Shown in pieces: positions 20,710 through 54,150 of a DNA stretch of 64,000 nt. The stretch comes from a virus, in the IMG/VR virus record IMGVR_UViG_3300039008_000208, positions 1 through 64,000 of that record; one strand, 5' to 3'. How positions within the stretch are numbered: the stretch's first letter is position 1; each line of letters opens with the position of its first letter. The position numbers and the translations under genes are program-made. A model generated the notes under the pieces. It did not search any database. It was not told the origin of the DNA and worked only from the letters and a program-made list of their open reading frames with translations.

Positions 20710-20853
20710 CCCGCATTTTTGGGACACTGTCTTGGAAAACTTAACGCTGTATGCAGGTCAAGATTTAAAAAACTTACTGGATACGTCACAGCAGCGTGTG
20801 TTGGCCTTAAACAAGGCTACAATAAAAAAATACAAGAAATAAGTAGGTAGGCT

Positions 20854-23280
20854 ATGGATTCCATAGATTTAGATAGCTTCAGTCCCGTTGCTGCACCTAA
20901 GAAGAAAAAGTCATCAGCCGTAAAAGATGATGTGTTGGAGGAACGAGCAGGATTACTTGAAGATGATGCAACATTGGAGACGATTTTAGGGCAAGAAATC
21001 GTTCCGATATTGCAAAATATCGATGCCAATACACAAGGGTTAAAAGCTGTTTCTACAGTTTTTGCTTCCATTGTTTCTACAATGTCTAGTGTTGCTGGAG
21101 CGCAACAGGCATTACCGCAGCCCGTTTATCCTACGTCGGTATCCCGAAAAAGCAGTACCCCCCAAAAAGCAGAAGCGCTTTCTCAATCTAAGGGGAAGCG
21201 TTTTTCTACTGAGAGTATCTCTGTTGAGAGTAGTTCTACTGAGGCAATTGTAAATAACAGTACAGTGGAAGCAGGTACAAAAAAGCCTGTGGAAATATCC
21301 CCAACATGGAAAGTTATTGACGAGCCAACAGCTATCGCCGCTCCATTTATTAACCCGCAAGAGGAGTCAAGCTCTCAAAAAGCTTATACCAAGGCGAAGG
21401 AGAAAGAGGGGGAGAAGGAGAACGGACGGGGGTTAAAAGATTACTTTAAGAATTTTTCTGGTGAGCTAATTTCAGATAACAAGCCGGAAGGAATGCAGGA
21501 TGTTGCTGGTTCTGCCGCTGGCGGTGTTTTATGGTCAGCGGCGATGGAACTTAAAGAAGCTTCAAGTGGTTTTGGTGAAATTGATACAGATGACGGCTCC
21601 GTAGCAGGGATTTTAAAAAAAGTTGCAATGGATAAGACAGGCCTGACGGCTTTGGCAGAAAAAAAAGAAGCTGCCAAAGAAAAACTGACTGAAAAGGTGC
21701 AAGTGTGGGCTACCGGTAAGCCGTCTGAAAAGCTGCCAGAGGGTTATTCTCGTGATGTGAATGGGAAATTGCGAGACATGCAAGGCAAATTCGTATCAAA
21801 GGATCAGGCTGAAGAAATCGGAATACCTCGTTCCCTCCCATCACAGGAAGAGTCTACTCGCAAATCCAATCTTTCTACGGTTTCGGAGACGAATGCGAAA
21901 CCAGTTGTGGAGGAGAAGGATCAAACTCAAGCAATGGAAGAAGTTGTCGCAACTTTAGAGTCTAATGACGCAAAGGCAGAAAAGCGAAGTGAAGATTTAG
22001 AGTCTACTATTGCAAACACTGCTGGCGCAAATGGCTCATCGGGGGACTCGCTTCTGTCTGATGCCTTTAACATGTTTGGAGGCAAAGATCGAAAACGTAG
22101 TAGAAAAAAAGGTAAGCGTGGTAAATTTGGCAAGGTTGGTGGAGCATTAGCAGCAATTGCTGGCGGCGGTGGCTTATTAAGTACGCTCTTCGGTAATGGT
22201 GGCGCTGAAGAAGTGGCAATGGATGCCGTTGAGGATAAAGCTGTATCAAAATTTGGTGGAAAGTTTGGTGGAAAACTTAGTGCGAAAATAGGTGAAACAG
22301 GTGTTGGTAAGCTTGGCACCAAGCTTGGGGGAAAGGGGGCTGCTAAACTGGGAGCACGAGCGATTCCTGTTGTCGGGCAAGTCCTCGCCGCAGGAATGGC
22401 GCTAAAGGATGGGTATGACGGTTGGAATGACTCAGAGATGCAGCAGGAAGCGTTTGACCTACATTCTGGGCAAGAAGCATCTACTGGGCAAAAAATGGCG
22501 AGTGCTGTTGCAAATGCCGTTGATATGGGTGGACTGGTTTCAGGTGGGTTATCCATGCTTGGCGCAGATGTAGATACTGCTGACATTGCAAAAGGACTGT
22601 ACGGTCTTTTCTCATCTGACGATTCAGGAATTGATAACGACGAAGTCGAAAAAAGCGTACCGGCAGCAGAAACAAAGGATGAAGTTATATCTGCTACTGA
22701 TGCAAAAAGATATCAATCAAGCTCTACTTTTGCGGAACATTTTAAAAAAAATGCGGATACTGCAAAAACAGCTTCTGAAAAATATTACTACAATGATGCT
22801 GCTGAAACTAATCGTGCAAAAGCGGCAGAAATTGCTGAAAAGTACGGCATTGGAGAGACAGATAAGCTTGAATATTTAGATGATGGCAGCGCACGAATTG
22901 TACGTGGTGGAAAAGTTGCACAAAAAAAACAGCATATTTCTGACACAGAGAACAGCGAAGCTAGCCCAAAAACTGTGGATGTGTCAGGGTCAAAAACAAC
23001 TGCGGAGTCTAACGAAAGCGTAAGCGGTCAGCTTTTGCAGAAAAAAGAAGAAGCTGTCTCTGTCCGGAAAGTTATTCAGAAAGAAAAAGAGCAGCAAAAA
23101 GCGCAAGATCGAACTGCTTCCCCTTCAAAGAAGGAGAGTAAGTCTGATAGGGCGTTATCTAAAATTCTTACAGTGCTTGAGTCGGATCGTAGGAAAAAAC
23201 CAGAGACAACTCCGAGCCAGTCAATACCGGTAGAGTATGACGACGTAACTACAACGCTAATGGTCAAAGACAGAATTTAA
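20854..23280 (+). CDS. tail tape measure protein
   Basis: 808 aa with low-complexity and coiled regions. It has a Gly-rich hydrophobic core (GGKFGGKLSAKIGETGVGKLG...VVGQVLAAGMAL). It sits between the chaperone candidate and the baseplate genes. Confidence 0.6.
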   Translation: MDSIDLDSFSPVAAPKKKKSSAVKDDVLEERAGLLEDDATLETILGQEIVPILQNIDANTQGLKAVSTVFASIVSTMSSVAGAQQALPQPVYPTSVSRKSSTPQKAEALSQSKGKRFSTESISVESSSTEAIVNNSTVEAGTKKPVEISPTWKVIDEPTAIAAPFINPQEESSSQKAYTKAKEKEGEKENGRGLKDYFKNFSGELISDNKPEGMQDVAGSAAGGVLWSAAMELKEASSGFGEIDTDDGSVAGILKKVAMDKTGLTALAEKKEAAKEKLTEKVQVWATGKPSEKLPEGYSRDVNGKLRDMQGKFVSKDQAEEIGIPRSLPSQEESTRKSNLSTVSETNAKPVVEEKDQTQAMEEVVATLESNDAKAEKRSEDLESTIANTAGANGSSGDSLLSDAFNMFGGKDRKRSRKKGKRGKFGKVGGALAAIAGGGGLLSTLFGNGGAEEVAMDAVEDKAVSKFGGKFGGKLSAKIGETGVGKLGTKLGGKGAAKLGARAIPVVGQVLAAGMALKDGYDGWNDSEMQQEAFDLHSGQEASTGQKMASAVANAVDMGGLVSGGLSMLGADVDTADIAKGLYGLFSSDDSGIDNDEVEKSVPAAETKDEVISATDAKRYQSSSTFAEHFKKNADTAKTASEKYYYNDAAETNRAKAAEIAEKYGIGETDKLEYLDDGSARIVRGGKVAQKKQHISDTENSEASPKTVDVSGSKTTAESNESVSGQLLQKKEEAVSVRKVIQKEKEQQKAQDRTASPSKKESKSDRALSKILTVLESDRRKKPETTPSQSIPVEYDDVTTTLMVKDRI

Positions 23281-23283
23281 TAG

Positions 23284-23631
23284 ATGTATACTGAAGCGAG
23301 TAAAAATCTCACCTCTGCGATTGGCGCTGACATTGCGATCAAAAACGAAGCAGACGCAATCTCAGAGCGAATTCAAGAGTGGTTCGAAACGCCAGCGGGA
23401 ACTATCGCTGATTTGCCGCACTGGGGACACAATCTATCGTCTTTTCAACATGATTCTGGCTTTAATGAAATGGCAATTGGCATAGAATTGTCGATTGTTG
23501 AGAAACTCCCCATTGATGTTGATGGTGTTGTATTGAGAGGAGTTGGCGTTGAAGAGGTCGCTATTGATGCGTATCGAATCTACATTATTCATCAACTAGG
23601 AATGACTGTAGCGGAACTCAATTTGAGCTAG
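23284..23631 (+). CDS. baseplate wedge protein, gp25/gpW-like
   Basis: ISERIQEWFETPAGTIADLPHWG fits the gp25-like pattern I..L.T..G.....P.fG. Confidence 0.5.
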   Translation: MYTEASKNLTSAIGADIAIKNEADAISERIQEWFETPAGTIADLPHWGHNLSSFQHDSGFNEMAIGIELSIVEKLPIDVDGVVLRGVGVEEVAIDAYRIYIIHQLGMTVAELNLS

Positions 23632-23639
23632 GGATTCAT

Positions 23640-25040
23640 ATGATTAGTATTAGCTCTGCAAAGCAAAAATTTGCTGAAATCCTTTCTTCTACCACTGCAT
23701 GGAAGCCTCTTGCATCATCTCAGTTCGTAGAGCATCTCTCTGTGTTTGTAAGCTGGTGCCTACGCTCTGCGCAATTTAGTACAGAAAGGAATCGGCAAGA
23801 AGCCTATGCTTCAACAGCCATTAATCCCTCTAGTATTATGGCTCATGCTGAAGACAGGGAATATTTGCCCATAAAAGCTTCCCCATCTAAGGGAGCGATA
23901 ACAGTAGAAAACATAGGAGAGCATACCTTTTCGCTGCCTATTCATACAGAGTTTTCTACTGAAGATGATATTCCCATCGTAACTCTTCAGGCTGTAAAAA
24001 TTGCCGCAGGGGGAAAAGTCGTAATTCCAGTAGCCCAGAAGACGTTAGTAGAACGGCTTTTTAAGGTTTCTGAAGGTATTTCATTTTATTCTGTAATGCT
24101 TCCAGTTGAGGATACAGCGCATATATCAAGCTTCAACGTAATGGTAAAAGAAGATGAGCATCTGCCATTTGAAAATTGGGCATATGCTCGATTGCTGACT
24201 AATACCAATTCAAAAAGCAAGGTTTATGACCAGTTTTATAGCCATACCGATCAGTTCGGAGTTCGGTTTGGTAATGGAACATTTGGGAAAATACCAAGTG
24301 TAGGTAGTGAGATTTTGGTGAAATGCTGGCTTACACAAGGAGAGCTTTTTTTAAGCGCAGGGCAGGAAGTATTTACAGTAAAAGAGCTTCCTGTAGAGAT
24401 CGTTGCAACAATCTCCACCGCTATTACAGGCGGTAATAGCGCCGAAGGAATTGAGAGTATACGAAAAAGTCTTCATTACTGGCAAATATATGATGATAAG
24501 CTTGTCTGGGATGATGATTATCCGTTTTTCTTAAACCGCGTTGTTCCAACAATGACATTTATTAATGTTTGGGGTGAAGCTGAAATGGAAAAACAAGCGG
24601 GAGCCCCTAGTGTCGAGTATATCAATAAAATTTTCTTTTCTGCATATGCTCCAGACATCGACGCACCTAACTTGTGCTTGGCAGCGCTGAAAGAAAAGCA
24701 CTCAGCACCTTTGAATAAATTCTTCAAGCATATTCCTGTAGTTCACAAGTATTTTAGATTGACGATTACGGGTAAGGTTCTTCCTGATGTAATTATTGAT
24801 GATGCAGAAGAGGAGGTTAAAAGAGCCCTGCTTACTGCGTACGGAAAGGACTCAGCAACTCGAAGAAAAAATGTTTTGTGGAACGAGCTTGTCGAAGTTG
24901 TTCAAAAGACAGGCTTCTTTGAAGAAGGGTCTGGAGCATCATTCCAAATGACCCCATCTGGTTCTCTTACCCCAGAAGAGTTGCAAGACATGGTGTCCAT
25001 CGACATTGAAAATACAACAGTTGAGTTAGAGTACTTGTAA
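23640..25040 (+). CDS. baseplate J-like protein candidate
   Basis: 466 aa directly after the gp25-like gene. The call rests on position only. Confidence 0.35.
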   Translation: MISISSAKQKFAEILSSTTAWKPLASSQFVEHLSVFVSWCLRSAQFSTERNRQEAYASTAINPSSIMAHAEDREYLPIKASPSKGAITVENIGEHTFSLPIHTEFSTEDDIPIVTLQAVKIAAGGKVVIPVAQKTLVERLFKVSEGISFYSVMLPVEDTAHISSFNVMVKEDEHLPFENWAYARLLTNTNSKSKVYDQFYSHTDQFGVRFGNGTFGKIPSVGSEILVKCWLTQGELFLSAGQEVFTVKELPVEIVATISTAITGGNSAEGIESIRKSLHYWQIYDDKLVWDDDYPFFLNRVVPTMTFINVWGEAEMEKQAGAPSVEYINKIFFSAYAPDIDAPNLCLAALKEKHSAPLNKFFKHIPVVHKYFRLTITGKVLPDVIIDDAEEEVKRALLTAYGKDSATRRKNVLWNELVEVVQKTGFFEEGSGASFQMTPSGSLTPEELQDMVSIDIENTTVELEYL

Positions 25041-26173
25041 TGCGCGATTGGCTTCTTAAGCGGCTTTCTCCTGCCAGAAGGAAAGATGAGCGTTGGACGC
25101 AACTTGCGATCACTCTGCAAAGTTTTTGGGAGTCCACTTTTTACCCAGAGTTGAAGCGTCTTGAAGATATGCGTTCAATATACACGGCGCATCCTCAAGA
25201 TTTAAAACAGAAGATGAGGGAACTCGGTGACTACTTCGCACCGGACATGCCAACACAGAACGATCAACCGTTAGCAGTAGCTTGGCGAAAGGCTGAGATT
25301 CTTAGAAAAGATAAAGAGTATCTTTTTGAATCGCTTTTTCAGAGAAACTTTGCCGGTTTGGACGTACGTTGGATTCCTTTATGGGCTGATAACAGAAAGC
25401 CATATGGAACTGCATTTGCACCAGCAGATGATCTTGCCAGTTGGGAGAAAGAGCTTTTCTACTTCTTGACATCTCGCGGAAAACTTAAAGCTAATTTAAC
25501 TCACATCCATCGGTCTGGAAGGACGAAAGAAGAGTTTCTAGCAATCGCAGAAAAATTGGTGCGCCGATTCAAGCCAACACACATCGTGTATGATGGGATA
25601 ATTTTTTATATCAATGTTGACCTTGAAGTATCTCCATTCATCGTTTCTCCTGCTTTTATTAGTAAAACATACCAGCAGATAGACATTACGTTTTCGCACT
25701 CTCGTTTACTTGATGCACATCCGGCAGATATGTCGCCACACTTAGATGAGCAAATTGATTTTGCTATTACGGCTCAATCGAACCAGACAGTTGCTCTTTC
25801 GTTTGTTCCGGAAGATCGACTGTTGAGCTTGGATCATTACGTTGGTGACGATGAGTTGCCTTGTGACTGGCTTCCTTTGGACTTAGTGCGAGGCGATGAT
25901 TCTAGTATGTTGGCATTTTCTCTTTTTGATGTGCCTTACATGCAAAATATTTCGACTATTCCCATACCGGCATTCAAAAAAGCTACATTTGCTGTCGCAA
26001 AAAAAGAATCAAAATTTTTTATTGAGTTTGAACCTGTTCCAGAAGCTATTGCAAAAACAAAACATGTAGTTCCCGTTCCGTGGGGGGTACGCGAGAGCAG
26101 CTTGGACAGGTACCCGAAGTTTGATGAAGTCCATTGCGATTTCGCACCATTGGACATGGTTATAGGAGATTAA
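25040..26173 (+). CDS. baseplate or fibre-proximal structural protein
   Basis: 377-aa ORF overlapping the upstream stop. Confidence 0.35.
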   Translation: MRDWLLKRLSPARRKDERWTQLAITLQSFWESTFYPELKRLEDMRSIYTAHPQDLKQKMRELGDYFAPDMPTQNDQPLAVAWRKAEILRKDKEYLFESLFQRNFAGLDVRWIPLWADNRKPYGTAFAPADDLASWEKELFYFLTSRGKLKANLTHIHRSGRTKEEFLAIAEKLVRRFKPTHIVYDGIIFYINVDLEVSPFIVSPAFISKTYQQIDITFSHSRLLDAHPADMSPHLDEQIDFAITAQSNQTVALSFVPEDRLLSLDHYVGDDELPCDWLPLDLVRGDDSSMLAFSLFDVPYMQNISTIPIPAFKKATFAVAKKESKFFIEFEPVPEAIAKTKHVVPVPWGVRESSLDRYPKFDEVHCDFAPLDMVIGD

Positions 26174-26176
26174 TGG

Positions 26177-26611
26177 ATGGAAGATGAAAAGATTTTTCAA
26201 AGTGCGATCATTTTAGATCGGTTTTACGAAAAAGTGGGACGTGCTGCTGCTGGAATTGGGCAGTGTCCGCGAATCATTAAATTTAAAGCAGGGTATGGCT
26301 ACCTTAATGAGTCTGTGCCAGAAGGCAAACCGCCTGAGATTCTGTCAGTTCCGTATGACCTTGAAGAGGTTCCAGAACCTTTTTACACCGGTAGCGTAGA
26401 TGCTCAATTTAGCAATGGCTCAACATTAGTTAAATGCACTATTCCAGAAGGCGGTATTGCAACATCAAAAAGATGTTCTGTGATTGGGCTGTACGATCAA
26501 GATGAAGAATTGGTTGCAATGTGTGTAGCGTTGCCTGATTGGGTTAAACCATCTCAGGAATACACCGTGTACCCTTCTATTAATTTCCCGATCAACAGAA
26601 AGGGAGAGTAG
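26177..26611 (+). CDS. tail-collar fibre domain protein (DUF3751-like)
   Basis: KFKAGYGYL...CSVIGLYDQDEELVAMCVALPDWVKP...INFP resembles the N-terminal domain of the P2 gpH family. Confidence 0.4.
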   Translation: MEDEKIFQSAIILDRFYEKVGRAAAGIGQCPRIIKFKAGYGYLNESVPEGKPPEILSVPYDLEEVPEPFYTGSVDAQFSNGSTLVKCTIPEGGIATSKRCSVIGLYDQDEELVAMCVALPDWVKPSQEYTVYPSINFPINRKGE

Positions 26612-26614
26612 TAC

Positions 26615-27181
26615 ATGGGATTACAGCAAAGCGTTTCGTTTAGAGCGGAAAGAACTTCTGTAGCTTTAAACCGAAAGTTCGCAGGAATCATCCCCGCAGG
26701 TGTTTATTATGGCTTTAATATTAAACCAGCCGGTGGGATGAATATCTCGTTGGAAGCGGATGAAGACTATCCGGCTAATGTCGCTGTTATAGACCGTAAT
26801 GGGTATTCTATTACTCTGACAGATCAGGACAACACTACTTATAGCGTGCCATCGACTGGTGAATGCTACGTATGCATCCAAGCAATATATCTGCCTGATG
26901 CTCATGGTGAACAAAGTATTGTCTTTTGCAGTGCTCCTGAAAAACATCATGTGGTTTTGGGTAAACTCAAAATTCCGTCCGGAACTACAGTTATCACTGC
27001 TGACATGATCTCCGAAGACGGGCGAACTATCGGCAACCCGATGCTTTGGCTCATGGACGTTAGTGCTCGTTTTATTAAGACCAGCACAGAAATCATGGGC
27101 GTACAGCAGCGCATTACGAACTTGGAAAATTGGGCAAAAAGCAAGGGCTTCGATCCCACCCAAACGTACTCTGGAAAGTAG
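26615..27181 (+). CDS. hypothetical tail fibre-module protein
   Basis: 188-aa ORF. Confidence 0.35.
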   Translation: MGLQQSVSFRAERTSVALNRKFAGIIPAGVYYGFNIKPAGGMNISLEADEDYPANVAVIDRNGYSITLTDQDNTTYSVPSTGECYVCIQAIYLPDAHGEQSIVFCSAPEKHHVVLGKLKIPSGTTVITADMISEDGRTIGNPMLWLMDVSARFIKTSTEIMGVQQRITNLENWAKSKGFDPTQTYSGK

Positions 27182-27190
27182 GAGAAATAC

Positions 27191-29239
27191 ATGTCCTCTA
27201 TACAGAAGCAGCTTGATGTACAGAAAAAAGCTGTAGAAGACCTTGACGCGCAAGTAAGTACGATTCTTGCTGCCGCCGGTGACGGAAAGCTTGATCCAGC
27301 AGTTATTGAGCAGCAGATTAAAGATGCAACTGATGATGCTATTGAAGATGTATTGGAAACGCTGGATGGCTTGGATTTAACAGAACTGAAAACCCGCACA
27401 GACTTGCAAGCGCGGCAGTCTGAAATTCAAAATACATACAACCCCGACACCAAGTTCTTTATGGAGTTTTTCTCTACGTTGTACAGCGTTCGCGACGAAC
27501 TCGTAATTGATGATGTACGCACGGTTGCCGGTGATGATTCCATTGATGTTTCGAATGTTAAAGGGATCGAAGTCGGCAAAGAGTATGTTTTAGAAAAAGA
27601 TGGCGTTACACGTTTTGTTACGATCAATGAAATCTTTTCTGATACCCGCGTAAAAGCTACTGCTCCAATCAACCATTCATTCACCGGTGCAACTATGAAG
27701 CGCACTGATTGGAAAATTTTGAATGGTGAAGCAAATCTTACAGCCGGTGACGTTTACTACTCAAAACCAGTTAACCTCGATACTGTCAGCAATACAGATA
27801 AAGCGCTTGTTATTCGCAGGCGAGATAATGCTGCAGTACTCAGAATTTTCTGTAAGAAATTCAATGGGGATTGGATTGAACAGCACTGGGACTGGAAGCG
27901 TGACGCAAAGGGCGTTGCTGGCTTCGTAGACTATGAATTTACTCTAAAAGAGCGTGGCGATTTGCATATAAAAATCGTCGCAGATGGCTCTACTACTGTG
28001 AAGTATATGATAGGTGTGTCCCGTGCAACAGGGCTTCGCGGCTTCCATAACCCTCCCTTAACTCCAACCTGTGTTCTTCCGGCAGATGGCGCTACTGGCT
28101 TGGGAGAAACTCCGGCACTAGCGACAACTGCATACACCCATCCTGCGAAGACAGCACAGCGCGGGACTGTTTTTGAAGTGAGTAAAAAGGCAGATGATTT
28201 TACCGGAGACAATCTGGTTTACTCATCTGGAGAAGTTGTTGGTATTGCAGCAACGACAGCTAAAGGAAAATTGCAGACAAACACCAAGTACTATCAGCGT
28301 GCAAAGCATGTTGATGCCCTTGATGGTATCTCTGAATGGTCTGCTGTTACTTGCTTCACTACAACAGGGTCTTTTGTGACTGTAGATCAGCCAACAGGCA
28401 AGGCACCAGTTGCCGGAGCAGAGCTAAGTTCTCCAGATGGACTGACGCTGACATCAAATCCATTTGCAACAACTGGCGGTAGTGATACGCACGCGGCCTC
28501 ACAATGGCAGATCGCGAAGAATCCGAACTTTGATACTATTCATTGGGATTCCAACGAAGACAGTGCCAATAAAGTGTCTAAAAGCGTTCCGGACGGCACA
28601 GCAGAGCGTGGTGAAACCTATTACTGGCGCTGCAGACACAAAGGCGCAAACAAAGGTTGGTCGGACTGGTCGGCGCCATTAACGTTTTCCGTTATCAATA
28701 TCGGAAACGGAGTAAGAGTTGATGGCGGTATCGCTATTTCCCATACATTTACGGATGGACAGCAAGGCTACATCATTGTCGCGCCTGCGTCTAAGCGAAC
28801 TACGAAAAAGTGGGGATTGTACAACCTCGATACTAGTCTTGCCAACTTGTCTTCTGCATCATCCAAAGACCCTAAGTCTGGTGCACAAAACACATCAGTT
28901 CTTTGTTCTGGTTCCTACAGCAGTCATAACGATGGGCAGGGTTCGGTTGGCGCTCCTGCTGCTGAGTATTGTGATAATCTTATATTTGAAGGCTGCAATG
29001 ACTTTTTTCTGCCTAACAAAGAAGAACTTGCCAAAATCATTTCACAGAAAGCCATTATTGACGCTGCTGACGAAACAAGTGGAAATAAGTTCTCTAGTAT
29101 TGGCTCTAACTACATCTGGAGCTCTTCGGAGAGCACTAGCGATCACGCTTGGGTGCAGCGCCCGAGCGACGGTTCTCAGAGTAACGGCCTTAAGAACACT
29201 GACTACTTTGTTGTGCCGTGTCGGAGGTTTATCCCTTAA
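27191..29239 (+). CDS. tail fibre / receptor-binding protein, DGR target (two FN3-like repeats plus a DUF1566/CLec-like tip)
   Basis: 682 aa. The VR occupies the last ~35 codons (SSSESTSDHAWVQRPSDGSQSNGLKNTDYFVVPCRR). Confidence 0.8.
   Translation: MSSIQKQLDVQKKAVEDLDAQVSTILAAAGDGKLDPAVIEQQIKDATDDAIEDVLETLDGLDLTELKTRTDLQARQSEIQNTYNPDTKFFMEFFSTLYSVRDELVIDDVRTVAGDDSIDVSNVKGIEVGKEYVLEKDGVTRFVTINEIFSDTRVKATAPINHSFTGATMKRTDWKILNGEANLTAGDVYYSKPVNLDTVSNTDKALVIRRRDNAAVLRIFCKKFNGDWIEQHWDWKRDAKGVAGFVDYEFTLKERGDLHIKIVADGSTTVKYMIGVSRATGLRGFHNPPLTPTCVLPADGATGLGETPALATTAYTHPAKTAQRGTVFEVSKKADDFTGDNLVYSSGEVVGIAATTAKGKLQTNTKYYQRAKHVDALDGISEWSAVTCFTTTGSFVTVDQPTGKAPVAGAELSSPDGLTLTSNPFATTGGSDTHAASQWQIAKNPNFDTIHWDSNEDSANKVSKSVPDGTAERGETYYWRCRHKGANKGWSDWSAPLTFSVINIGNGVRVDGGIAISHTFTDGQQGYIIVAPASKRTTKKWGLYNLDTSLANLSSASSKDPKSGAQNTSVLCSGSYSSHNDGQGSVGAPAAEYCDNLIFEGCNDFFLPNKEELAKIISQKAIIDAADETSGNKFSSIGSNYIWSSSESTSDHAWVQRPSDGSQSNGLKNTDYFVVPCRRFIP
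28064..28671 (+). repeat. direct repeat copy 1 (shared with 32640-33247)
   Basis: Gap-free collinearity with a constant offset of 4576 nt. It contains long identical runs such as gcaccagttgccggagcagagctaagttctccagatggactgacgctgacatcaaatccatt. Confidence 0.85.
29120..29226 (+). repeat. DGR variable region (VR)
   Basis: Aligns to the TR over 107 nt. All 11 differences lie opposite TR adenines. Confidence 0.9.
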
Positions 29240-29254
29240 TTTTTAAACTGTCTT

Positions 29255-29276
29255 TAGGGGGCGTTTAAGCCCCCTA
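29255..29276 (+). promoter_or_regulatory. GC-rich hairpin downstream of the VR (candidate DGR target-recognition element)
   Basis: tagggggc-gtttaa-gcccccta: an 8-bp stem 28 nt after the VR end, with no T-run. Confidence 0.5.
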
Positions 29277-29292
29277 TTGCTGGACTACTAGC

Positions 29293-29670
29293 TTGAACCA
29301 ACAGCCTTACGAGAAGGTGCCAATCTATAGAACGGCACGAGATATACTAAGAGACACACACGTAATGACAGCAAGCATGAACAAGGCGTATAAATTCTCA
29401 CTTGGAGAAACCCTTAGAACATCAGCGCTGGCGCTTACAGAAGGCATTTTTTTAGCATACGAGGAGCGGGAAAATTTAAAGCGAAAATTGTCAGCTATCA
29501 AGTTAATAAAGCGCACGGTGCAGCGCATACTTATAAACTATCGCATTGCAAATGACCTACAGCTGATTTCTGCAAAGCAATACGGAGTGCAGGTTGAGCG
29601 ACTTGTAAACATACTTGCGCAATCGAAAGGATGGGAAAAGAAAACAGCAGAGGCGCTAAATAGTAAATAA
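29293..29670 (+). CDS. avd: accessory variability determinant (Avd, four-helix-bundle family)
   Basis: TTG start, 125 aa. VPIYRTARDIL...KFSLGETLRTSALALTEGI...ANDLQLISAKQY matches the Avd / S23-IVS family pattern. It lies between the target gene and the TR. Confidence 0.75.
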   Translation: MNQQPYEKVPIYRTARDILRDTHVMTASMNKAYKFSLGETLRTSALALTEGIFLAYEERENLKRKLSAIKLIKRTVQRILINYRIANDLQLISAKQYGVQVERLVNILAQSKGWEKKTAEALNSK

Positions 29671-29804
29671 CACGGACATGGCTTGAATACATGCAGTTAC
29701 GGCTGCACGTAGAATGCTTCCACCTCGGATTGTACCACCTGTGCGGTAGATAAAAATGACTTACTTTTGCGGAAACGCGACTTTAGGTTTTGAGAGTACA
29801 ATCT

Positions 29805-29911
29805 AGCTCTTCGGAGAACACTAGCAATAACGCTTGGGTGCAGCGCCCGAGCGACGGTAATCAGAATAACAACAATAAGAACAATGACTACTTTGTTGTG
29901 CCGTGTCGGAG
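29805..29911 (+). repeat. DGR template repeat (TR)
   Basis: Rich in AAC/AAT codons (NTSNN...NQNNNNKNN) and identical to the VR except at 11 adenines. Confidence 0.9.
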
Positions 29912-29924
29912 ATGGAATAAAACC

Positions 29925-31034
29925 GTGAACTTTGCAAAGCAATATACATATCAGGACATCTTTCATGCGTACATGATGTGTCGAAAAAGAAAACGAAACA
30001 AAAAAAGTGCAATTGCATTTGAAATTAACTTTGAAGAAAACTTATTACAGTTGCTTAATGAGGTTAATAGTGGGCGCTATAGGATAGGAAGAACAACAGT
30101 TTTTGTTGTTACATATCCGAAAGCTCGTGAAATATGGGCGGCACTTTTTCGTGATAGAATTGTGCATCATCTTGTGTATGAAGAAATAGCGCCGTTTTTT
30201 GAAAAACGATTTATTGAGGATACGTATAGCTGCCTAAAAGGGCGAGGCGTACTCGCCGCTTCTGATCGTTTGATGCAATTTCATCGTAAAGCAACAGGTA
30301 ATTACGCAAAAGACACTTGGTTTTTGCAATTTGATATAAAGAATTTTTTTGTCAGTATTGAAAAAGAGATTCTTTTAGATTTGCTGCTTCAGCACGTAGA
30401 GAGTGGAATATCTCGAAGACTTCTTGAGCAAATAGTGTGGCATGACCCAACTGTTAATCCCATCGTAAATGGTAAACGCTCTTTTTTTGCTAAAGTTCCA
30501 CCTCATAAATCTCTTTGGAATGCACCAAAGAACAGAGGGCTGCCTATTGGCAATTTAACCAGCCAGTTTTTCAGCAATGTTTATTTGAATGAACTAGATC
30601 AGTTCGTCAAACATACGTTACGAGCCCAATATTACGTCCGCTATGTGGATGATGCTGTAATATTACATCATGATAAAGCCACGTTGCAGCGTTGGTTAGA
30701 AGAGGTAGATGCTTTTTTGCGCGAAAAGCTCAAGATTTCATTACATCGAGATAAATGCTTTATCAAACATGCATCGCAAGGAATTAATTTTGTAGGAGCT
30801 ATTGTCAAGCCTTATAGGCGATATGCAAGACGGTCTACAATTTCTAAAGCAAAGACAAGCGCGTTTGCAGTGAGTAGACATCCTACAGAGCAGAATATTG
30901 CGTCTGTGAACAGCTATCTTGGACTTATTCGCAATACTGCATCTTATAAAATGCGTAAAAAAATATGCGAACATTCTAAAATTTCAACAATAGTTAGTCA
31001 TGATTCTAATTATTTCAAATTGATCCAACTTTAA
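29925..31034 (+). CDS. DGR reverse transcriptase
   Basis: Carries IGNLTSQFFSNVYLN and YVRYVDDAVIL motifs. The start is ambiguous: GTG 29925 or ATG 29973. The tracked ORF start at 29790 reads through the TR. Confidence 0.85.
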   Translation: MNFAKQYTYQDIFHAYMMCRKRKRNKKSAIAFEINFEENLLQLLNEVNSGRYRIGRTTVFVVTYPKAREIWAALFRDRIVHHLVYEEIAPFFEKRFIEDTYSCLKGRGVLAASDRLMQFHRKATGNYAKDTWFLQFDIKNFFVSIEKEILLDLLLQHVESGISRRLLEQIVWHDPTVNPIVNGKRSFFAKVPPHKSLWNAPKNRGLPIGNLTSQFFSNVYLNELDQFVKHTLRAQYYVRYVDDAVILHHDKATLQRWLEEVDAFLREKLKISLHRDKCFIKHASQGINFVGAIVKPYRRYARRSTISKAKTSAFAVSRHPTEQNIASVNSYLGLIRNTASYKMRKKICEHSKISTIVSHDSNYFKLIQL

Positions 31035-31046
31035 AGGAGCGCCTCT

Positions 31047-31661
31047 GTGTTTTACGATAGTAACAAAAAAGCGAAGCTTACTGAAAGTCAACTATTTCGA
31101 TGTTATGGATTGAAGCCAACAGATGATCTTGTAAATGTTGGCTCTGGCATTTTCTCGCTTAATGAGCCTGTGCCAGAGGGTTTTGACGAAGAGGTGCATA
31201 ACATTATCGTAAGCGGCTTCACAATCAATAAACAAACAGCCTCTGCTACCAAAGATTCTCGAATTGAGTTTAAAGAGCGTGCGGTTGTTGAATCAGTAAT
31301 AGCGGCACGGTTAGGCGAAAAACGCTATAAGCTGGAAACTGCTGGCATAACATGGAGAGAGCATCCTGTTCACACCGATCGCGAAGCACGTTTTTTGATT
31401 GCAGTTGAAATGAAGGCGATTGAGGATGGGTTCCGCAAAGATGGTAAAGAGTGGAAATTTAAAGATGGATTTCATTCTGTCTCAAACGCAGATTACCCCC
31501 TGCTCTCGGCGGCAGTATATAAATATTCATCTGGATGTTTTGATCGTGAAGCGGAGATTTGCAAACTTGTAGCAGAAGCAGAAGACACCGCTGGAGCATA
31601 TCAAGTGTATCTTGACGAAAAAGATACCGGCTGGCCGGAAGATACTGACAACGTAGACTAG
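31047..31661 (+). CDS. tail fibre assembly / DUF4376-like protein
   Basis: GTG start with AAGGAG 8 nt upstream. 204 aa, located between the two fibre genes. Confidence 0.4.
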   Translation: MFYDSNKKAKLTESQLFRCYGLKPTDDLVNVGSGIFSLNEPVPEGFDEEVHNIIVSGFTINKQTASATKDSRIEFKERAVVESVIAARLGEKRYKLETAGITWREHPVHTDREARFLIAVEMKAIEDGFRKDGKEWKFKDGFHSVSNADYPLLSAAVYKYSSGCFDREAEICKLVAEAEDTAGAYQVYLDEKDTGWPEDTDNVD

Positions 31662-31677
31662 CTTGTAAACAAAATAC

Positions 31678-31710
31678 AGTGGGGCATCGTAGTTAGCCCC
31701 ACTTTCTTTA
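31678..31710 (+). terminator. weak hairpin / attenuator before the second fibre gene
   Basis: agtggggc-N10-gccccact followed by ttcttta. Confidence 0.3.
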
Positions 31711-31724
31711 CGCGGAGTAGAAAT

Positions 31725-33293
31725 ATGACAACTCAAACACAAGCTTCCGTTCTTGCTATAATGAGCGGAACTGCAGGCATTGCAGAAAAAGTTAAACGTT
31801 TGCTTGCCGCCATTGGCTCTGGAGACATTGACCCTGATGCTATCGAAGAGACTATCCGTGTTGCAACAGAACAAGCAGTATCAGACACGCTAAAAGAGAT
31901 TGAAGGTCTAGCAGCAACCGAACTGCTGAATAGAACAGATGAGCAGCGTATGCTTCAATCTATTCAAAATGAATTGTCACCAAAGTTGAAGTATGCATTT
32001 GAGTTTTTTCATCCTCTTTATGCTCTTTCCGACGTAATCACTGTCGCTGATGTTGAAAGCGTTACTGGTGATGATTCTATTGATATGGAAAGTACCACAA
32101 AGTTGAAAGCAGGGCAGGAATACATCATTCAGAATGATAGCATTCAAGAGACGATCACAGTAAAAGAAATCTTATCTGTTAATCGCATTCGAACACAGCA
32201 ACCCGTACAAAACACAATACGTGGAGGCCAGCTTGTTAGAACGAATTGGAAGTACATAACAGCCACTGCTGCCAACGGCGGGGCAACATTGGCTACCGCT
32301 AAGAAGGGGCAAGTTTATTACTCAGACACAATTGATGTTAGCTCTGCCTTTGTTTCTTCTAATCGAAAAGCCATGATCCTTCGTACCGACGAAGGTGTAA
32401 AACCGCCAACGTTTTTGTACAGAAAAGCAAACTCCAGTACTGCATGGACTCCTGTGGTGTGGGAATATCAACGCCCAGCCCCCCATACTCCGTCAAAGCT
32501 CGATATTGAATACACGTTTGAATATGACGGGGAATTCGAAGTTAAAATTGTTGCAACAGAAAATGCAACAATTGACTTCATTATGTTTATTACATCGCCT
32601 TCGGGAATAAAGAGTGGCCTTCATCACCCCCCAGCGATTCCAACCTGTGTTCTTCCGGCAGATGGCGCTACTGACGTTGGCGAAACACCAGCATTAACAA
32701 CTAGTGCATACACCCATCTTGCGAAGACAGCACAGCGCGGTGTTTTTATTGAAGTGAGCAAAAAAGCAGATGATTTTACCGGTGAAAACCTTGTGTTTAA
32801 TTCCGGCGAACGTGCCGGTGTGTCTGTGGCTCCCGATAAAGGCGTATTGCAGACAAACACCAAGTACTATCAGCGCGCAAAGCATATTGATGCCCTTGAT
32901 GGTATCTCTGAATGGTCTGCTGTTACCTGCTTCACGACAGCAGGGTCTTTTGTGTCTATCGATACGCCACGCAGTACAGCACCAGTTGCCGGAGCAGAGC
33001 TAAGTTCTCCAGATGGACTGACGCTGACATCAAATCCATTTTCAACAACTGGCGATAGTGATACGCACGCGGCCTCACAGTGGCAGATCGCGAAGAATCC
33101 GAACTTTGATACTATTCATTGGGATTCCAGCGAAGACAGTGCCAATAAAGTGTCTAAAAGCGTTCCGGACGGCACCGTAGAGCGTGGCGAAACCTATTAC
33201 TGGCGCTGTAGACACAAAGGCGCAAACAAAGGTTGGTCGGACTGGTCTGTCGGGAATGTTTTTACTATTTCCAGAGTCGCTATTGAGGAGTAG
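31725..33293 (+). CDS. tail fibre paralogue lacking the diversified tip domain
   Basis: 522 aa, collinear with the first fibre through both FN3-like repeats. It then ends (VGNVFTISRVAIEE) with no DUF1566/VR. Confidence 0.7.
   Translation: MTTQTQASVLAIMSGTAGIAEKVKRLLAAIGSGDIDPDAIEETIRVATEQAVSDTLKEIEGLAATELLNRTDEQRMLQSIQNELSPKLKYAFEFFHPLYALSDVITVADVESVTGDDSIDMESTTKLKAGQEYIIQNDSIQETITVKEILSVNRIRTQQPVQNTIRGGQLVRTNWKYITATAANGGATLATAKKGQVYYSDTIDVSSAFVSSNRKAMILRTDEGVKPPTFLYRKANSSTAWTPVVWEYQRPAPHTPSKLDIEYTFEYDGEFEVKIVATENATIDFIMFITSPSGIKSGLHHPPAIPTCVLPADGATDVGETPALTTSAYTHLAKTAQRGVFIEVSKKADDFTGENLVFNSGERAGVSVAPDKGVLQTNTKYYQRAKHIDALDGISEWSAVTCFTTAGSFVSIDTPRSTAPVAGAELSSPDGLTLTSNPFSTTGDSDTHAASQWQIAKNPNFDTIHWDSSEDSANKVSKSVPDGTVERGETYYWRCRHKGANKGWSDWSVGNVFTISRVAIEE
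32640..33247 (+). repeat. direct repeat copy 2 (shared with 28064-28671)
   Basis: See copy 1. Confidence 0.85.
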
Positions 33294-33298
33294 GCACA

Positions 33299-33676
33299 GT
33301 GCATAAAATTTTAACTAAGCGACCCGTAAAAATTAAACCTGTGTCATGGGTTCCATTTGGTGTTGCTGCCATCACGCTTGGGCATACAATCTACATTTTG
33401 CGTAAGCAAATTGATAACAGGCCATTACTGAATCACGAGACAAACCACGTCGCACAGGCTGAAGAAGAGAAGACGCTTTTACACTTCTGGGGCAAATATC
33501 TGTTTAGCCGCAAGCATCGCTTTGCGTATGAGGCTGACAGTTTTGCGGTGGAAGTTAAAAGCAGTGGCGATCTGGAGCAGTGCGCGTATTTGTTCCGTAA
33601 AAACTACTTCTTAAATATTAGCTTCGACGAAGCGCGACAAGGCATACTTGCTGCGCTGGAAAAGATAGCAAAGTAA
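33299..33676 (+). CDS. small HExxH (zincin-like) protein
   Basis: GTG start, 125 aa. It has an N-terminal hydrophobic segment and the motif NHETNHVAQ. Confidence 0.35.
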   Translation: MHKILTKRPVKIKPVSWVPFGVAAITLGHTIYILRKQIDNRPLLNHETNHVAQAEEEKTLLHFWGKYLFSRKHRFAYEADSFAVEVKSSGDLEQCAYLFRKNYFLNISFDEARQGILAALEKIAK

Positions 33677-33719
33677 CTAGTCTTCAAGTCCGACAATAAT
33701 AGAGCTATATAACACATAG

Positions 33720-33751
33720 AACGCCCTGCAATTCCGCAGGGCGTTTTTTTG
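33720..33751 (+). terminator. Rho-independent terminator after the fibre module
   Basis: aacgccctgc-aattcc-gcagggcgtt followed by T7. Confidence 0.8.
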
Positions 33752-33794
33752 GCGTATGGTTCATCGGTATTTTAGCTAAAATATTGGAGGGATC

Positions 33795-34388
33795 ATGCCT
33801 CAAGTTCGTCTTGATTTTGAGAAGCTAACAGAAGCTGGTTTGAAACCGGTAGTTAGGAAAATAGAAAAACATGGCCTTACAGTAGCAAGCATAAAAGCTA
33901 CAAATAAGGCTAAACGGATGTCGGGTTATCTAACAAAGTCTGTGATTTTTGTCTTTGATACAGGACAGCAGTTGGAAGTTTTGGTCAAAGCCGACGGGAC
34001 GGTTTTTCAGGTAAAATTAAACCGTAAGGTTGTACCTATTAAGGCTGTGTCTAACATTGACAAAGCAATTGTCGAGCTTGTTGATGCCGTACAGGATAAT
34101 GAAAGAAAATATTTGAAAGCCAAGAAACGTCGTGAAGCGCAGGTTGCTAAAAAACTTGCTACAGGTTCGCCTGCTCGGATCACTCGAAAAGAAAAACTTG
34201 ATAAAGCTAAAGCAATGCAAAGTGAGTTGCAGAGTGAGTTAGCAGTTTATCAAGAACGTATGCAGTCTCTTGATCTTGCCGATCTTCAAGCTCGACTTGA
34301 AGACAAGAAGGCAGAAGAAGCATTATTGCAAGAAAAAAATACCGAACTTAAATCAGAACTCGAAGGTTTGAAAAAGGAGGCTGTATAA
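33795..34388 (+). CDS. coiled-coil protein sharing its N-terminal module with the next ORF (Hdf-like relationship)
   Basis: 197 aa. SVIFVFDTGQQLEVLVKADG...KLNRKVVPI resembles QLPFSDGQSVSIIFHSPEGD...LLNKRDITHVV in the 745-aa ORF. Both segments are followed by coiled coil. Confidence 0.35.
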   Translation: MPQVRLDFEKLTEAGLKPVVRKIEKHGLTVASIKATNKAKRMSGYLTKSVIFVFDTGQQLEVLVKADGTVFQVKLNRKVVPIKAVSNIDKAIVELVDAVQDNERKYLKAKKRREAQVAKKLATGSPARITRKEKLDKAKAMQSELQSELAVYQERMQSLDLADLQARLEDKKAEEALLQEKNTELKSELEGLKKEAV

Positions 34389-36625
34389 TGCCAATTACTC
34401 GTGAAGAAGTATTACAAGCCCCTGTCAACCCGAACTTCAATGGAATAAAGATTACGGCAGAAGGCGGTACGTTGGTCGGCTTTTCTGTAAACGAACTTGA
34501 TGATGTTTACTACAAGTTATCTAGTGGCAGGTATGAAGATGCTTGTTTGCTAGAGTCTGTAAGCTTCGATGCAATCGACGAATTTTGGAATCCAGCTTCT
34601 GTTGTTTTTGGCGAAGACATGCTTCTTGAAGCTGTTACGATCCCTTCGTATGCTCGTACAGGCCAACGCATGAAAGCTGTCGTGCGTGTCATGAATAAAG
34701 CTCTAAGCAGTAATGAATCTGGCATTACTGCTGAAGCTCCGATTGTTGGTAAGCCGAAAAAGCAGGGAAATTTTGCATACGTGACAGTACAGCTTCCTTT
34801 CTCTGATGGGCAGTCTGTATCGATAATCTTTCATTCTCCGGAAGGAGATAAAAAGAAAATTGAAGCCACTGATCCATTGATTGCGTTTCGCTGGCTGTTG
34901 AATAAGCGCGACATAACACATGTTGTAGCTCCGGAAAGTGGTCGCGAAATCTCGTTAGAAGAAATTTCCAAACGAGTATCTCAGCTTGTTGAGAAAAATC
35001 ACGTCCGCTTTATGAAAACGCAAAAAGCGGCGATGGAAGAACAGAAAGAGCTTGAAGCAACGGAAAATTCTATTGCTGAAATTAAAGAACAGATTACGAC
35101 TACTACTGAAAAAGTGGAACAAGCTGTAAAGCAGAAGGAAACTGTTGAGTCGAAGATTGAAGCTCGTGATGTTCGCATTTCTAAGCTTGCGGATGAAAAT
35201 GCTAAGCTTGAGGCAGAGATTGTCGAATTAAAAGCTAAGAAGGCGGCTACAGCCCCTCAAGAGGGCGGCTCTGATGGTGAAGGTGCTAATCCTGAAGTAA
35301 CTGATGAGGTAGTCCCAGACGAAGAAGTTTCTCGTATTGATCCGTTTTGGAAGCCTGAAAAACTTCCGTCCGATGTACGTACTGCATTGAAAAAAGTACC
35401 TGTGCGCGTGACAGTTGGCGAACTCCCGTCAACATTCCCTAAAGAAGTTCGCCGTGGTGGGCATCTTATCATGAAGGCCAGCCGTCCGATTACAAGCGGT
35501 AACGACATTATCTGGGGTAAACACTTTGCCGGTATCAACCCTGAAGGCCAGTATGCAGCACAATCTATTGAACACAACCGTAAGCTTGATGCATCCGTCA
35601 TTGCGGTAGTTTCAAAAGAACAAGCATACGAGTACCTGACTCATAAATTCGGTGATGAATTTACGAATTCAGATGCGGACGATGAAGCTCGTATGGAGCT
35701 TGCTGAAACACAGCTTTCCAATCTCGAAGGACTTGCCTATCCAGAGTTCCTCAAAGCCTTTAAAAACCCTACTGATGAAAGTGAAGCTGGTGAGGGAGAA
35801 GGTGAAGAAGGTTTAAATAACGATACGTTCCCAGAAGAATCCGTTATCCGTGCGCTGAATGGCGTTGTTCTTGGTAAAGATACAGCGGCAGACATGGCGG
35901 CAGACGGCGGCTATGCTGGCATATTGAAAGATAAGCTGTTGCAGGAAAAGTATCAGGATGCGCTTGACCACATCCTCGGCATTCGTATTGTTGAGGTGCG
36001 CAACGCGCTTCGTGATCTTGGTTGGAGCGGTGAGCAAAATGGTACGCTGTCTAAGAATGGTGTGACTGCCAAGTTTGAATATGAGCATGTAGGAGCCGGT
36101 AAGAATGTAGTGGGTTATTCGATTAACGGCATTCGTGACGACCTTACTGCCCTTTCTGAGGAGCTTGCAAGGCAGATTGACACTACTGCCCCAACTTCAG
36201 CCAATGAGCCTGAAGTTGAGGAAGGGGCTGATGTGAACGAGCCATATCCTGTCGGTTTTACTTGGGCTGAAGGTATGAAAAACTTTAAAGTTGTTGATCG
36301 CGAAGGTGAAAAGTACATCATCGAAGACACTGCTATGGCGGGAATGTTTCCAGAAGTGGTAACCTATGAAGAGCTTCATAACCGAGTGACTAACCCACCT
36401 CGCCCAGAAAGGGGTAGCGGTGAATTTAATCCAGCAGTGGAATCATTGAAGAGCATTGTTGCTGGCGCTTATGACCACGATCCGGAAGGACTGGAAGCTG
36501 CCCTTGATGAAGCAGCGGAGTATCTTGAAGAACGCGATTTGTTAAAGCGATATGACGAACTTCTTAATGAAGCAGCAGATAAAGCAGCACAAGTTGCGAT
36601 TGATGGCGCAAAAGGGGTAGCGTAA
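34388..36625 (+). CDS. large coiled-coil virion-associated protein (DarA-like by architecture)
   Basis: 745 aa with ATGA start/stop coupling. It has a central coiled coil and acidic linkers. Confidence 0.3.
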   Translation: MPITREEVLQAPVNPNFNGIKITAEGGTLVGFSVNELDDVYYKLSSGRYEDACLLESVSFDAIDEFWNPASVVFGEDMLLEAVTIPSYARTGQRMKAVVRVMNKALSSNESGITAEAPIVGKPKKQGNFAYVTVQLPFSDGQSVSIIFHSPEGDKKKIEATDPLIAFRWLLNKRDITHVVAPESGREISLEEISKRVSQLVEKNHVRFMKTQKAAMEEQKELEATENSIAEIKEQITTTTEKVEQAVKQKETVESKIEARDVRISKLADENAKLEAEIVELKAKKAATAPQEGGSDGEGANPEVTDEVVPDEEVSRIDPFWKPEKLPSDVRTALKKVPVRVTVGELPSTFPKEVRRGGHLIMKASRPITSGNDIIWGKHFAGINPEGQYAAQSIEHNRKLDASVIAVVSKEQAYEYLTHKFGDEFTNSDADDEARMELAETQLSNLEGLAYPEFLKAFKNPTDESEAGEGEGEEGLNNDTFPEESVIRALNGVVLGKDTAADMAADGGYAGILKDKLLQEKYQDALDHILGIRIVEVRNALRDLGWSGEQNGTLSKNGVTAKFEYEHVGAGKNVVGYSINGIRDDLTALSEELARQIDTTAPTSANEPEVEEGADVNEPYPVGFTWAEGMKNFKVVDREGEKYIIEDTAMAGMFPEVVTYEELHNRVTNPPRPERGSGEFNPAVESLKSIVAGAYDHDPEGLEAALDEAAEYLEERDLLKRYDELLNEAADKAAQVAIDGAKGVA

Positions 36626-37533: not shown

Positions 37534-37535
37534 TA

Positions 37536-39365: not shown

Positions 39366-39367
39366 CT

Positions 39368-40336: not shown

Positions 40337-40354
40337 TAGTTTTGTACATTATGC

Positions 40355-40383
40355 CCCACGCTATTTTTAGCGTGGGTTTTTTT
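40355..40383 (+). terminator. Rho-independent terminator
   Basis: cccacgct-attttt-agcgtggg followed by T7. Confidence 0.8.
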
Positions 40384-40450
40384 AGCTTCAAAAAATGCGA
40401 TATGCGGCAGATAGAACAGTGGAGCTATCCCTTCTTAGGGTTATTGAGCT

Positions 40451-40491
40451 ATCGAATTAAACGATGCGTAGAACGTATCGTCTAATTCGAT
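40451..40491 (+). promoter_or_regulatory. 18-bp imperfect inverted repeat upstream of the 2105-aa gene
   Basis: atcgaattaaacgatgcg-tagaa-cgtatcgtctaattcgat (2 mismatches) followed by ttttt, ending 31 nt before the ATG. Confidence 0.4.
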
Positions 40492-40522
40492 TTTTAAATG
40501 ATAGCCACACTAGAGAGAGCAG

Positions 40523-54107: not shown

Positions 54108-54150
54108 GCATAGCTCTCCCATAAGAATAAAACATTTTCACAACATCATT

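Follow-up and report, generated by a model that had tools for sequence, protein, structure and literature searches.

The 64,000-nt stretch of viral DNA analyzed here (positions 1 to 64,000 of the IMG/VR record IMGVR_UViG_3300039008_000208, hereafter the window) very probably carries a functional diversity-generating retroelement (DGR) of the Avd type, which resides in an uncultured 94-kb P1-like myovirus and is aimed at the tip of a distal tail fibre. Every DGR-defining feature that could be tested was found, in the common avd-TR-RT architecture in which the template repeat (TR) lies between avd and the gene for the reverse transcriptase (RT) (Table 1). With over 30,000 DGRs catalogued, a tail-fibre DGR is in itself one more case in a large catalogue, and the core finding is unsurprising. 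Phage DGRs that are active in nature and diversify tail fibres with Ig-like domains beside the variable domain are well documented (PMC8144416). What the present case adds is that the element was caught in the act, with two alleles of its variable repeat (VR) on an otherwise identical genome, and that it sits at the DNA-inversion slot of phage P1, so that two unrelated tip-changing mechanisms have apparently been recruited to one place. A possibly permuted RNA scaffold next to the TR is a third point of interest.

The VR spans codons 644–679 of the 682-codon fibre gene. A repeat finder and a pairwise alignment returned the same coordinates for the VR/TR pair (29120-29226 and 29805-29911; offset 685) as had been described from the sequence alone: a direct repeat of 107 nt without gaps and with 90% identity. 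Counted base by base, the two copies differ at 11 positions, all 11 of which are adenines in the TR, replaced in the VR by G (5), C (4), or T (2), and every one of them falls at codon position 1 or 2 of an AAC or AAT (AAY) codon in the frame of the fibre. This recount was identical to the one made in the sequence-only reading, which had also quoted the TR and VR peptides exactly, and realignment disclosed no mismatch at a non-adenine position. Adenines make up 33 of the 107 nt of the TR, and the chance that 11 random mismatches would all fall on A is 6.2e-7. An additional TR-A/VR-G difference at 29912/29227, the same in both natural VR alleles, brings the count to 12 of 12, and the homology stops within 2 nt of it. 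The VR and TR share GTGCCGTGTCGGAG at their 3′ ends, which is followed by the G/A divergence at 29227/29912, a candidate for the boundary between the initiation of mutagenic homing sequence (IMH) and its TR counterpart (IMH*). The same pattern recurs in related cassettes, whose RTs are 53–61% identical to that of the window: they keep the gene order, and their TR/VR differences are confined to adenines (14 of 14 in L012, plus one T in the IMH region; 10 of 10 in L013; and 15 of 15 in L015). No second VR or other copy of the TR pattern was found in the window on either strand.

Downstream of the VR, the inverted repeat at 29255-29276 folds as an 8-bp GC-rich hairpin at the DNA level, and it is a candidate for a target-recognition hairpin or cruciform, or else for the terminator of the fibre gene. 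There is no T-run 3′ of it; a hairpin resembling it, but built on another stem and closed by a GUUCAA loop, is present in the relative L012, and none like it was seen in the relative L013. A scan of 26000-34500 for promoters and terminators performed no better than on shuffled sequences.

A protein search found a fibre protein that is 99% identical to the target, with all differences located within the VR, and the fibre gene was present on contigs of 94,101–94,116 nt from several JGI metagenomes. One of these, L002, equals the window over 22 kb without any difference. Aligned with the window over 22,049 nt, another near-identical 94-kb contig, L001 (JGI 3300045494), shows 17 differing columns, 16 of which lie in the VR: 13 substitutions, all at positions that are adenines in the TR, and a 3-nt in-frame deletion that removes one codon opposite an AAT of the TR (L001 11930-12035; window equivalent 29173-29175). 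There were no differences at non-adenine TR positions, and the TR itself is identical; compared with that TR, the L001 VR differs at 12 positions, and all 12 are adenines. Of the 34 adenines of the 109-nt TR, 17, the fixed 29912 among them, are mismatched in one or both VR alleles. The sole L001 difference outside the VR is a single-nucleotide polymorphism at 19972, which is common to contig L003; because L003 has the VR of the window, the VR has been rewritten on one genomic background. Over the 22 kb compared, what is otherwise the same genome carries two natural alleles, which supports an active DGR. A clonal VR, named in the sequence-only reading as an outcome that would refute the DGR, was not what was seen; the two alleles differ only at TR-adenine positions. 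Exact-pattern scans for the 5′ flank of the VR in IMG/VR and the JGI metagenome collection yielded no further VR alleles. Two contigs of this phage also carry single-base deletions, in L004 at the window equivalents 27205 and 27224, where they truncate the N-terminus of the target fibre (a 628-aa call), and in L003 at 21267 and 21293, where they split the Sit-like gene; these may be assembly errors or real defective variants.

The RT falls with the DGR RTs on sequence comparison. It matches Pfam RVT_1 (E 2.3e-19) and PHROG 1423 (E 2e-94), and its best match in the PDB is the Bordetella bRT (8ub7, E 1.3e-32), in an alignment beginning at bRT residue 13, whereas group II intron RTs match at about 1e-9 (LtrA, 9e-10), approximately 23 orders of magnitude weaker. 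The phmmer match to bRT is split into two stretches, and the identity is low. Scores against the NCBIfam group II, retron, and Drt models were far under the cut-offs of these models. The translation contains the motifs IGNLTSQFFSNVYLN and YVRYVDD that had been read from it earlier, and IGNLTSQ and YVDD correspond to the DGR-clade motifs I/LGxxxSQ and YxDD. The closest phage RTs (about 45% identity), those of Burkholderia phage Magia and the Pseudomonas Detrevirus phages, adjoin annotated Avd genes. With bRT as its best PDB match and its relatives beside Avd genes, the RT does not fall outside the DGR RTs, and its proposed DGR type was thus upheld. Its start is most likely the GTG at 29925, because homology to bRT and to the relatives begins after the TR; related RTs align from residue 1–7 of this form. 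A longer open reading frame (ORF) that starts at TTG 29790 and reads through the TR was rejected as the real RT because homology to bRT and the relatives begins 3′ of the TR, and it is an ORF-finder artefact.

The ORF between the fibre gene and the TR had been taken as Avd-like with a TTG start, and both points found support. It matches PHROG 3206 ("Avd protein of DGR") over residues 3–121 with an E value of 8.7e-15, and it is 43–53% identical to the avd products of related cassettes from residue 1–4 on. JGI calls a shorter ATG form; the TTG start is favoured over it because the first 24 residues, which depend on that start, are conserved in the related cassettes. No sequence match to Avd was found in the PDB, the solved Avd included. 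Avd is present in about 74% of DGRs. The boundaries given previously for the fibre and avd ORFs and the end of the RT ORF at 31034 were correct as stated.

The target fibre consists of an N-terminal part, two Ig/FN3-like repeats, and a C-terminal tip. That the tip is mounted on two FN3-like repeats, as first suggested from the sequence, was corroborated by a Pfam match to Ig_Rha78A_N (E 1.5e-7) and by an internal repeat (E 6e-6). An AlphaFold (AF2) model of the tip from an alignment of 31 sequences reached a predicted local distance difference test score (pLDDT) of 97.1, superseding a first, poor model built from six sequences (pLDDT 59.7). The top Foldseek match of this model in the PDB was the C-terminal domain of Legionella Lcl (8q4e; E 1.9e-5; template modelling (TM) score to the target 0.69), followed by many C-type lectin-like domains at weak E values; the sequence profile of the tip also reaches 8q4e (E 4.7e-4). 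Among the viral models in BFVD, its nearest neighbours are phage DUF1566 and tail-fibre proteins (TM 0.6–0.73). These results agree with the DUF1566/C-type-lectin fold that had been read from the C-terminal sequence. No sequence match to the whole target fibre was found in the PDB. The tip family is large, with 1,813 representative clusters at E below 1e-3, and reaching it required a profile query; a word-indexed search with the tip alone gave one match. One tip homologue, the 412-aa protein P0075, ends in ...SDGNQNNNNKNNEFWAVPARR, an asparagine-rich pattern as in the translation of the window TR. Its C-terminus represents either a VR that has not been diversified or a translated TR; the asparagine-rich end points to a TR design that is common to other elements.

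These components suggest the following course of events. A transcript would span the avd–TR spacer and the TR, and an RT–Avd complex would copy the TR to complementary DNA (cDNA), misincorporating opposite adenines. We infer that this cDNA would then replace the VR, which makes up the 36 codons directly ahead of the terminal "FIP" of the distal fibre gene. With the adenines clustered in 10 AAY codons, mutagenesis would randomise the ligand-binding surface of the lectin-like tip without creating stop codons and would leave the scaffold constant, and the altered tip should change the host surface structures that are bound. Contigs of 40–63% GC contain related DGR cassettes in which the fibre is represented by its Ig-plus-tip part alone, and cassette and tip appear to travel together as a module.

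Several points weigh against a functional DGR that changes host recognition in this way. The tip matches Lcl_C (PF07603, formerly DUF1566) with an E value of 4.5e-7 and 30.6 bits, below the cut-off of 34.9, and Avd matches Pfam bAvd (E 1.2e-5) and NCBIfam DivGenRetAVD (E 4.6e-7) only below their cut-offs. The evidence for activity is a comparison of two consensus sequences and not a population measurement. Five of the assemblies, which number six or seven, carry one VR allele, and slow turnover or strong selection may lie behind this shared allele. One VR allele has lost a codon, which is not a textbook outcome of a DGR; indels opposite AAY codons have been catalogued for DGRs (PMC5758913). 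Host-range switching is an expected consequence of the proposed mechanism, and the roles given below to the RNA helices are assigned by analogy with one solved system.

The predominance of a single VR allele in five of the six or seven assemblies, together with an allele comparison that draws on assemblies and not on read-level data, could also be accommodated by a fossil or decaying DGR, in which mutagenesis lies in the past, the element is dead, and the second VR allele is older and has been kept by inter-strain recombination. We regard this as very improbable: all three ORFs are intact, the TR is invariant, no flanking recombination tract is visible, and compensatory changes across relatives maintain the structured RNA of the element. 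Moreover, the backgrounds of the two alleles differ at no more than one site in about 22 kb outside the VR, which leaves no time for an old VR polymorphism. Nor do we give much credence to an assembly artefact, whereby the second allele would be a TR/VR read chimera or a mixed-population consensus and not a real haplotype. Short-read assemblers can indeed mix near-identical repeats, the 3-nt deletion in the L001 allele is unusual, and error-like single-base indels occur in other contigs of the same phage. However, the L001 bases at the 12 TR-adenine positions are neither those of the TR nor, mostly, those of the window VR, and thus the allele is not a TR/VR chimera; it is also in frame and has no changes at non-adenine positions, and a mixed-population consensus would itself mean DGR diversity.

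The active DGR that we favour also includes a structured RNA. The avd–TR spacer is 134 nt long and the distance from the TR to the RT start is 12 nt, with like proportions in relatives and in phage Magia. From 5′ to 3′, the spacer comprises a P1 hairpin, one strand of a long-range duplex, a P2 strand, P3, an A-rich stretch, and P4 with a GNRA loop. Applied to five spacer sequences, RNAalifold predicted 30 pairs, 22 of which show compensatory changes. In a covariance-model alignment of 10 loci, which is biased towards the structure by having been fitted to the model, 86% of the cells were paired versus 32–41% when the partners were slid, and none of 500 shuffles reached the covariation score. 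A first covariance model (R1) detected the RNA only in the closest lineage, and a second (R2) added four loci whose RTs are only 42–45% identical; the Magia-type spacers (Burkholderia Magia, Pseudomonas Detrevirus) were not detected by the covariance models. The spacer RNA was thereby assembled from 14 loci with RTs 42–61% identical (the window, L012, L013, L015, L018, L173-L175, L177, L178, L187, L195, L197, and L202). Helix P1 was poorly supported (68–72% paired). No Rfam family matched the window at gathering thresholds, and a chance match with an E value of 2 was returned in 29240-30200.

Two of the RNA elements are positioned at the limits of the TR. Helix P2 ends one base before 29805, the first TR/VR-homologous base of the window, and the gap between P2 and the TR is 0 nt in the window and L012, 1 nt in L013, and 4 nt in L015. 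At the other end, the strand 29718-29726 pairs with 29909-29917, with eight of nine pairs formed in the window; this long-range duplex is present in the consensus fold of a longer alignment and in both the minimum free energy and centroid folds of the window RNA alone (z = -2.98). In a gapless alignment of 14 sequences, the blocks of which were anchored by hand on conserved motifs, the 8-bp duplex was 87.5% paired versus 30–52% when slid, six of its eight pairs covary, and 0 of 500 shuffles reached its score. Loci that were found after the idea had been formed mostly retain it, with all eight pairs in L195, L202, and L178 and six of eight in L187; in L178, the otherwise constant CUC/GAG is swapped for UUG/CAA. 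G29908, the TR base that borders the duplex on its 5′ side, is conserved without exception in the 14 loci. Over the first 150 nt of the RT gene, the predictions contained no covarying structure.

In BPP-1, the structured element Sp begins with an Avd-binding stem-loop and a primer strand that pairs with the TR 3′ end beside the first templated G, continues with one strand of the stop duplex, the other being located immediately 5′ of the TR, and a short stem-loop, and ends with unpaired adenosines, a single-stranded ring, and a long RT-binding stem-loop (bioRxiv 10.1101/2023.10.23.563531). The window spacer has the same order of elements but lies 5′ of the TR. By analogy, we propose that 29718-29726 may act as a cis-primer on the TR 3′ end and P2 as the polymerisation stop, and there is about an even chance that the BPP-1-type Sp scaffold has been circularly permuted to the 5′ side of the TR in this lineage. 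In such a permuted arrangement, the template would be a loop bounded exactly by two helices, and the stop duplex would be closed by the bases 5′ of the TR; the layout possibly also exists in cultured phages such as Burkholderia phage Magia. A somewhat less probable, though substantial, alternative is that the spacer structure regulates RT translation or transcript stability, or is a mere binding site for RT or Avd, and that priming takes place downstream of the TR inside the RT gene. It draws strength from the fact that the helix functions come only from the analogy with BPP-1 (bioRxiv 10.1101/2023.10.23.563531), from the hand-anchored duplex blocks, from the six of eight duplex pairs retained in L187, and from the poor pairing of helix P1. 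It is harder to reconcile with a helix P2 that ends at, or within 4 nt of, the TR start in the window and three relatives, with a duplex partner that begins right after a G invariant in all 14 loci, with the retention of the duplex in loci outside the set from which the idea was formed (in L178 by exchange of both strands), and with the lack of predicted covarying structure at the start of the RT gene.

If the permuted scaffold is real, an RNA scaffold for cis-primed reverse transcription can sit on either side of the template, and the present arrangement would be a second natural solution to the cis-primed reverse transcription of DGRs. A survey of 278 DGRs that covered 40 nt upstream and 100 nt downstream of the TR identified downstream elements in 207 (bioRxiv 10.1101/2023.10.23.563531), and a permuted scaffold might explain some of the approximately one quarter of Avd-type DGRs without downstream elements. 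A scaffold that works from either side would also matter for the engineering of DGRs as targeted-evolution tools. No report of an upstream Sp-like element was found in the literature searched, the coverage of which was incomplete.

Compared with the BPP-1 DGR (mtd-avd-TR-brt), the element has the same order of target, avd, TR, and RT, a homologous RT, and an Avd; in both, it is the adenines of AAY codons for the C-terminal end of a receptor-binding protein that are mutated, the VR and TR close with a GC-rich segment, and the VR has an inverted repeat 3′ of it. The sequence-only reading had called this the classic mtd-avd-TR-rt layout. Its gene order stands, but the layout is classic only in part: BPP-1 has a 140-nt Sp after the TR, whereas here a 134-nt structured RNA precedes the TR, which abuts the RT gene (TR end, 29913; RT start, 29925). 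The target also differs, with the Mtd fold in BPP-1 and an Lcl_C/DUF1566 lectin-like tip on Ig/FN3 repeats here, as does the carrier, a 94-kb P1-like myovirus, and RT identity is low.

Two other groups of DGRs also resemble the element in part. DUF1566/"CLec2" targets form category d, exemplified by the Legionella LdtA DGR, and avd-TR-RT is architecture B (Wu et al. 2018, PMC5758913). As in that class, a weak C-terminal match to DUF1566 (Lcl_C) overlaps with the VR of the window, the core consists of avd, TR, and RT, IMH-like divergence follows the last mutable adenines, and an indel lies opposite an AAY codon; the diversified protein is a bacterial surface lipoprotein in that class and a phage tail-fibre tip here, and membership of the window element rests on a sub-threshold Pfam score and a structure prediction. 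The DGRs of Magia and the Detrevirus phages likewise have avd, a spacer of 130–163 nt, and a TR abutting the RT, and Magia has a 5-bp complement of the TR 3′ end (AUCUG/CAGAU) at the equivalent site of its spacer. They differ in that their targets are small stand-alone lectin-fold proteins outside the tail module and that they have two VRs.

Table 1. Coordinates of the DGR, its RNA elements, and adjacent fibre genes in the window
Feature	Position	Strand	Remarks
Homologue of the S N-terminus, 188 aa	26615..27181	+	blastp to P1 S aa 18-208, 25%, E 9e-13
DGR target, distal tail fibre, 682 aa	27191..29239	+	N-terminal part, two Ig/FN3-like repeats, Lcl_C/DUF1566 tip
Two Ig/FN3-like repeats of the target fibre	about 28055-28705	+	
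C-terminal Lcl_C/DUF1566 C-type-lectin-like tip	about 28691-29239	+	
VR	29120..29228	+	Last 36 codons of the fibre gene ahead of the final FIP and stop
GC-rich inverted repeat	29255..29276	unspecified	TAGGGGGC-GTTTAA-GCCCCCTA; 27 nt 3′ of VR; DNA fold
avd (accessory variability determinant), 125 aa	29293..29670	+	TTG start
Predicted structured non-coding RNA domain of the DGR transcript (Sp-like)	29671..29804	+	RNAalifold and covariance model
RNA helix P1	about 29688-29711		Hairpin
RNA single strand	29718-29726		UUCCACCUC; pairs with 29909-29917 (GAGAUGGAA) at the 3′ limit of TR/VR homology
RNA helix P2	29727-29735 with 29796-29804		
RNA helix P3	29737-39 with 29745-47		A-rich stretch after it
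RNA helix P4	29759-29771 with 29776-29788		GAAA loop
TR	29805..29913	+	Inferred copied part 29805-29908
DGR reverse transcriptase, 369 aa	29925..31034	+	Probable GTG start, 12 nt past TR
DUF4376 protein	31047..31661	+	Pfam DUF4376 E 1.8e-7; PHROG tail fibre E 3.5e-15
Paralogous fibre 2, 522 aa	31725..33293	+	Same N-terminal part and Ig/FN3 repeats

The carrier is, as judged from its sequence, a distant P1-like myovirus. It is not a member of the P1 genus (Punavirus), because a megablast search of 50,697 phage records, with the cassette and with its 25-kb surroundings as queries, returned no match at the nucleotide level. The window encodes terminase, portal, sheath, baseplate, tail-fibre, Hdf, DarA, and DarB-like proteins, and the DarA, DarB-like, and portal matches are among the evidence for its P1-like character. 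Window positions 19903-34388 are collinear with positions 28000-46000 of P1 (NC_005856; L011) at only 25–32% protein identity, and the order common to both is pmgB, sit, pmgA, bplA, 16, an R-sized ORF, the S N-terminus, hdf, and darA.

The DGR thus lies in the same slot as the fibre switch of P1, between the N-terminal constant part of S and hdf/darA and next to the block pmgB-sit-pmgA-bplA-16. In P1 this slot holds Sv, U, U′, Sv′, cin, and the lyd genes, including the Cin-invertible C segment (Sv/U, Sv′/U′), whereas in the window the order is target, avd, TR, RT, the DUF4376 gene, fibre 2, and a 125-aa ORF. The two systems are alike in having two alternative distal fibre genes and in their purpose of varying the receptor-binding end of the fibre. 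They differ in that P1 chooses between two prefabricated tips by inversion, whereas the window would retro-mutagenise one tip; no invertase or inverted repeats were seen in the slot in the ORF list or by the repeat finder. No report of a DGR in P1-like phages was found in the literature searched, which was likewise covered incompletely.

Among the neighbouring genes, the 188-aa ORF at 26615-27181 has PHROG tail-fibre N-terminal matches in addition to its similarity to S, and its product is probably the baseplate-proximal fibre adaptor. The DUF4376 protein is a probable assembly or chaperone partner of the target fibre. Fibre 2 is 53% identical to the target over 498 aa and is without the lectin-like tip, a VR, or a TR-like match. 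A 612-nt tract across the Ig/FN3 repeats of the two fibre genes (28063-28671 versus 32639-33247) has 88% DNA identity, far above the rest of the gene, which suggests recent gene conversion or duplication. In the P2-like contigs L005-L008 (JGI 3300035388/9), fibre tips about 60% identical to that of the target are followed directly by a DUF4376 gene; no avd, TR, or RT and no repeat involving the 3′ end of the fibre gene was found within these contigs, the only sequence searched. The DGR cassette lies between the fibre and DUF4376 genes as if inserted there.

Right after fibre 2, the 125-aa ORF at 33299-33676 has an HExxH-like HETNH and a weak match to the extracellular contractile injection system (eCIS) core family PF13699 (E 6.6e-4), and it may serve fibre 2 as a separate tip or an accessory protein. 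No tRNAs were found in the window. A P1-type antirestriction set occupies 33795-46840 and comprises a Hdf-like protein, a DarA-like protein of 745 aa, a Clp-type protease, and a 2,105-aa DarB-like methyltransferase/helicase. A tyrosine recombinase at 53130-54122 (-) (PHROG integrase, E 1.4e-60) and a replication-initiation-like protein at 11338-12645 fit a P1-like plasmid-prophage lifestyle, in Cre-like and RepA-like roles, respectively.

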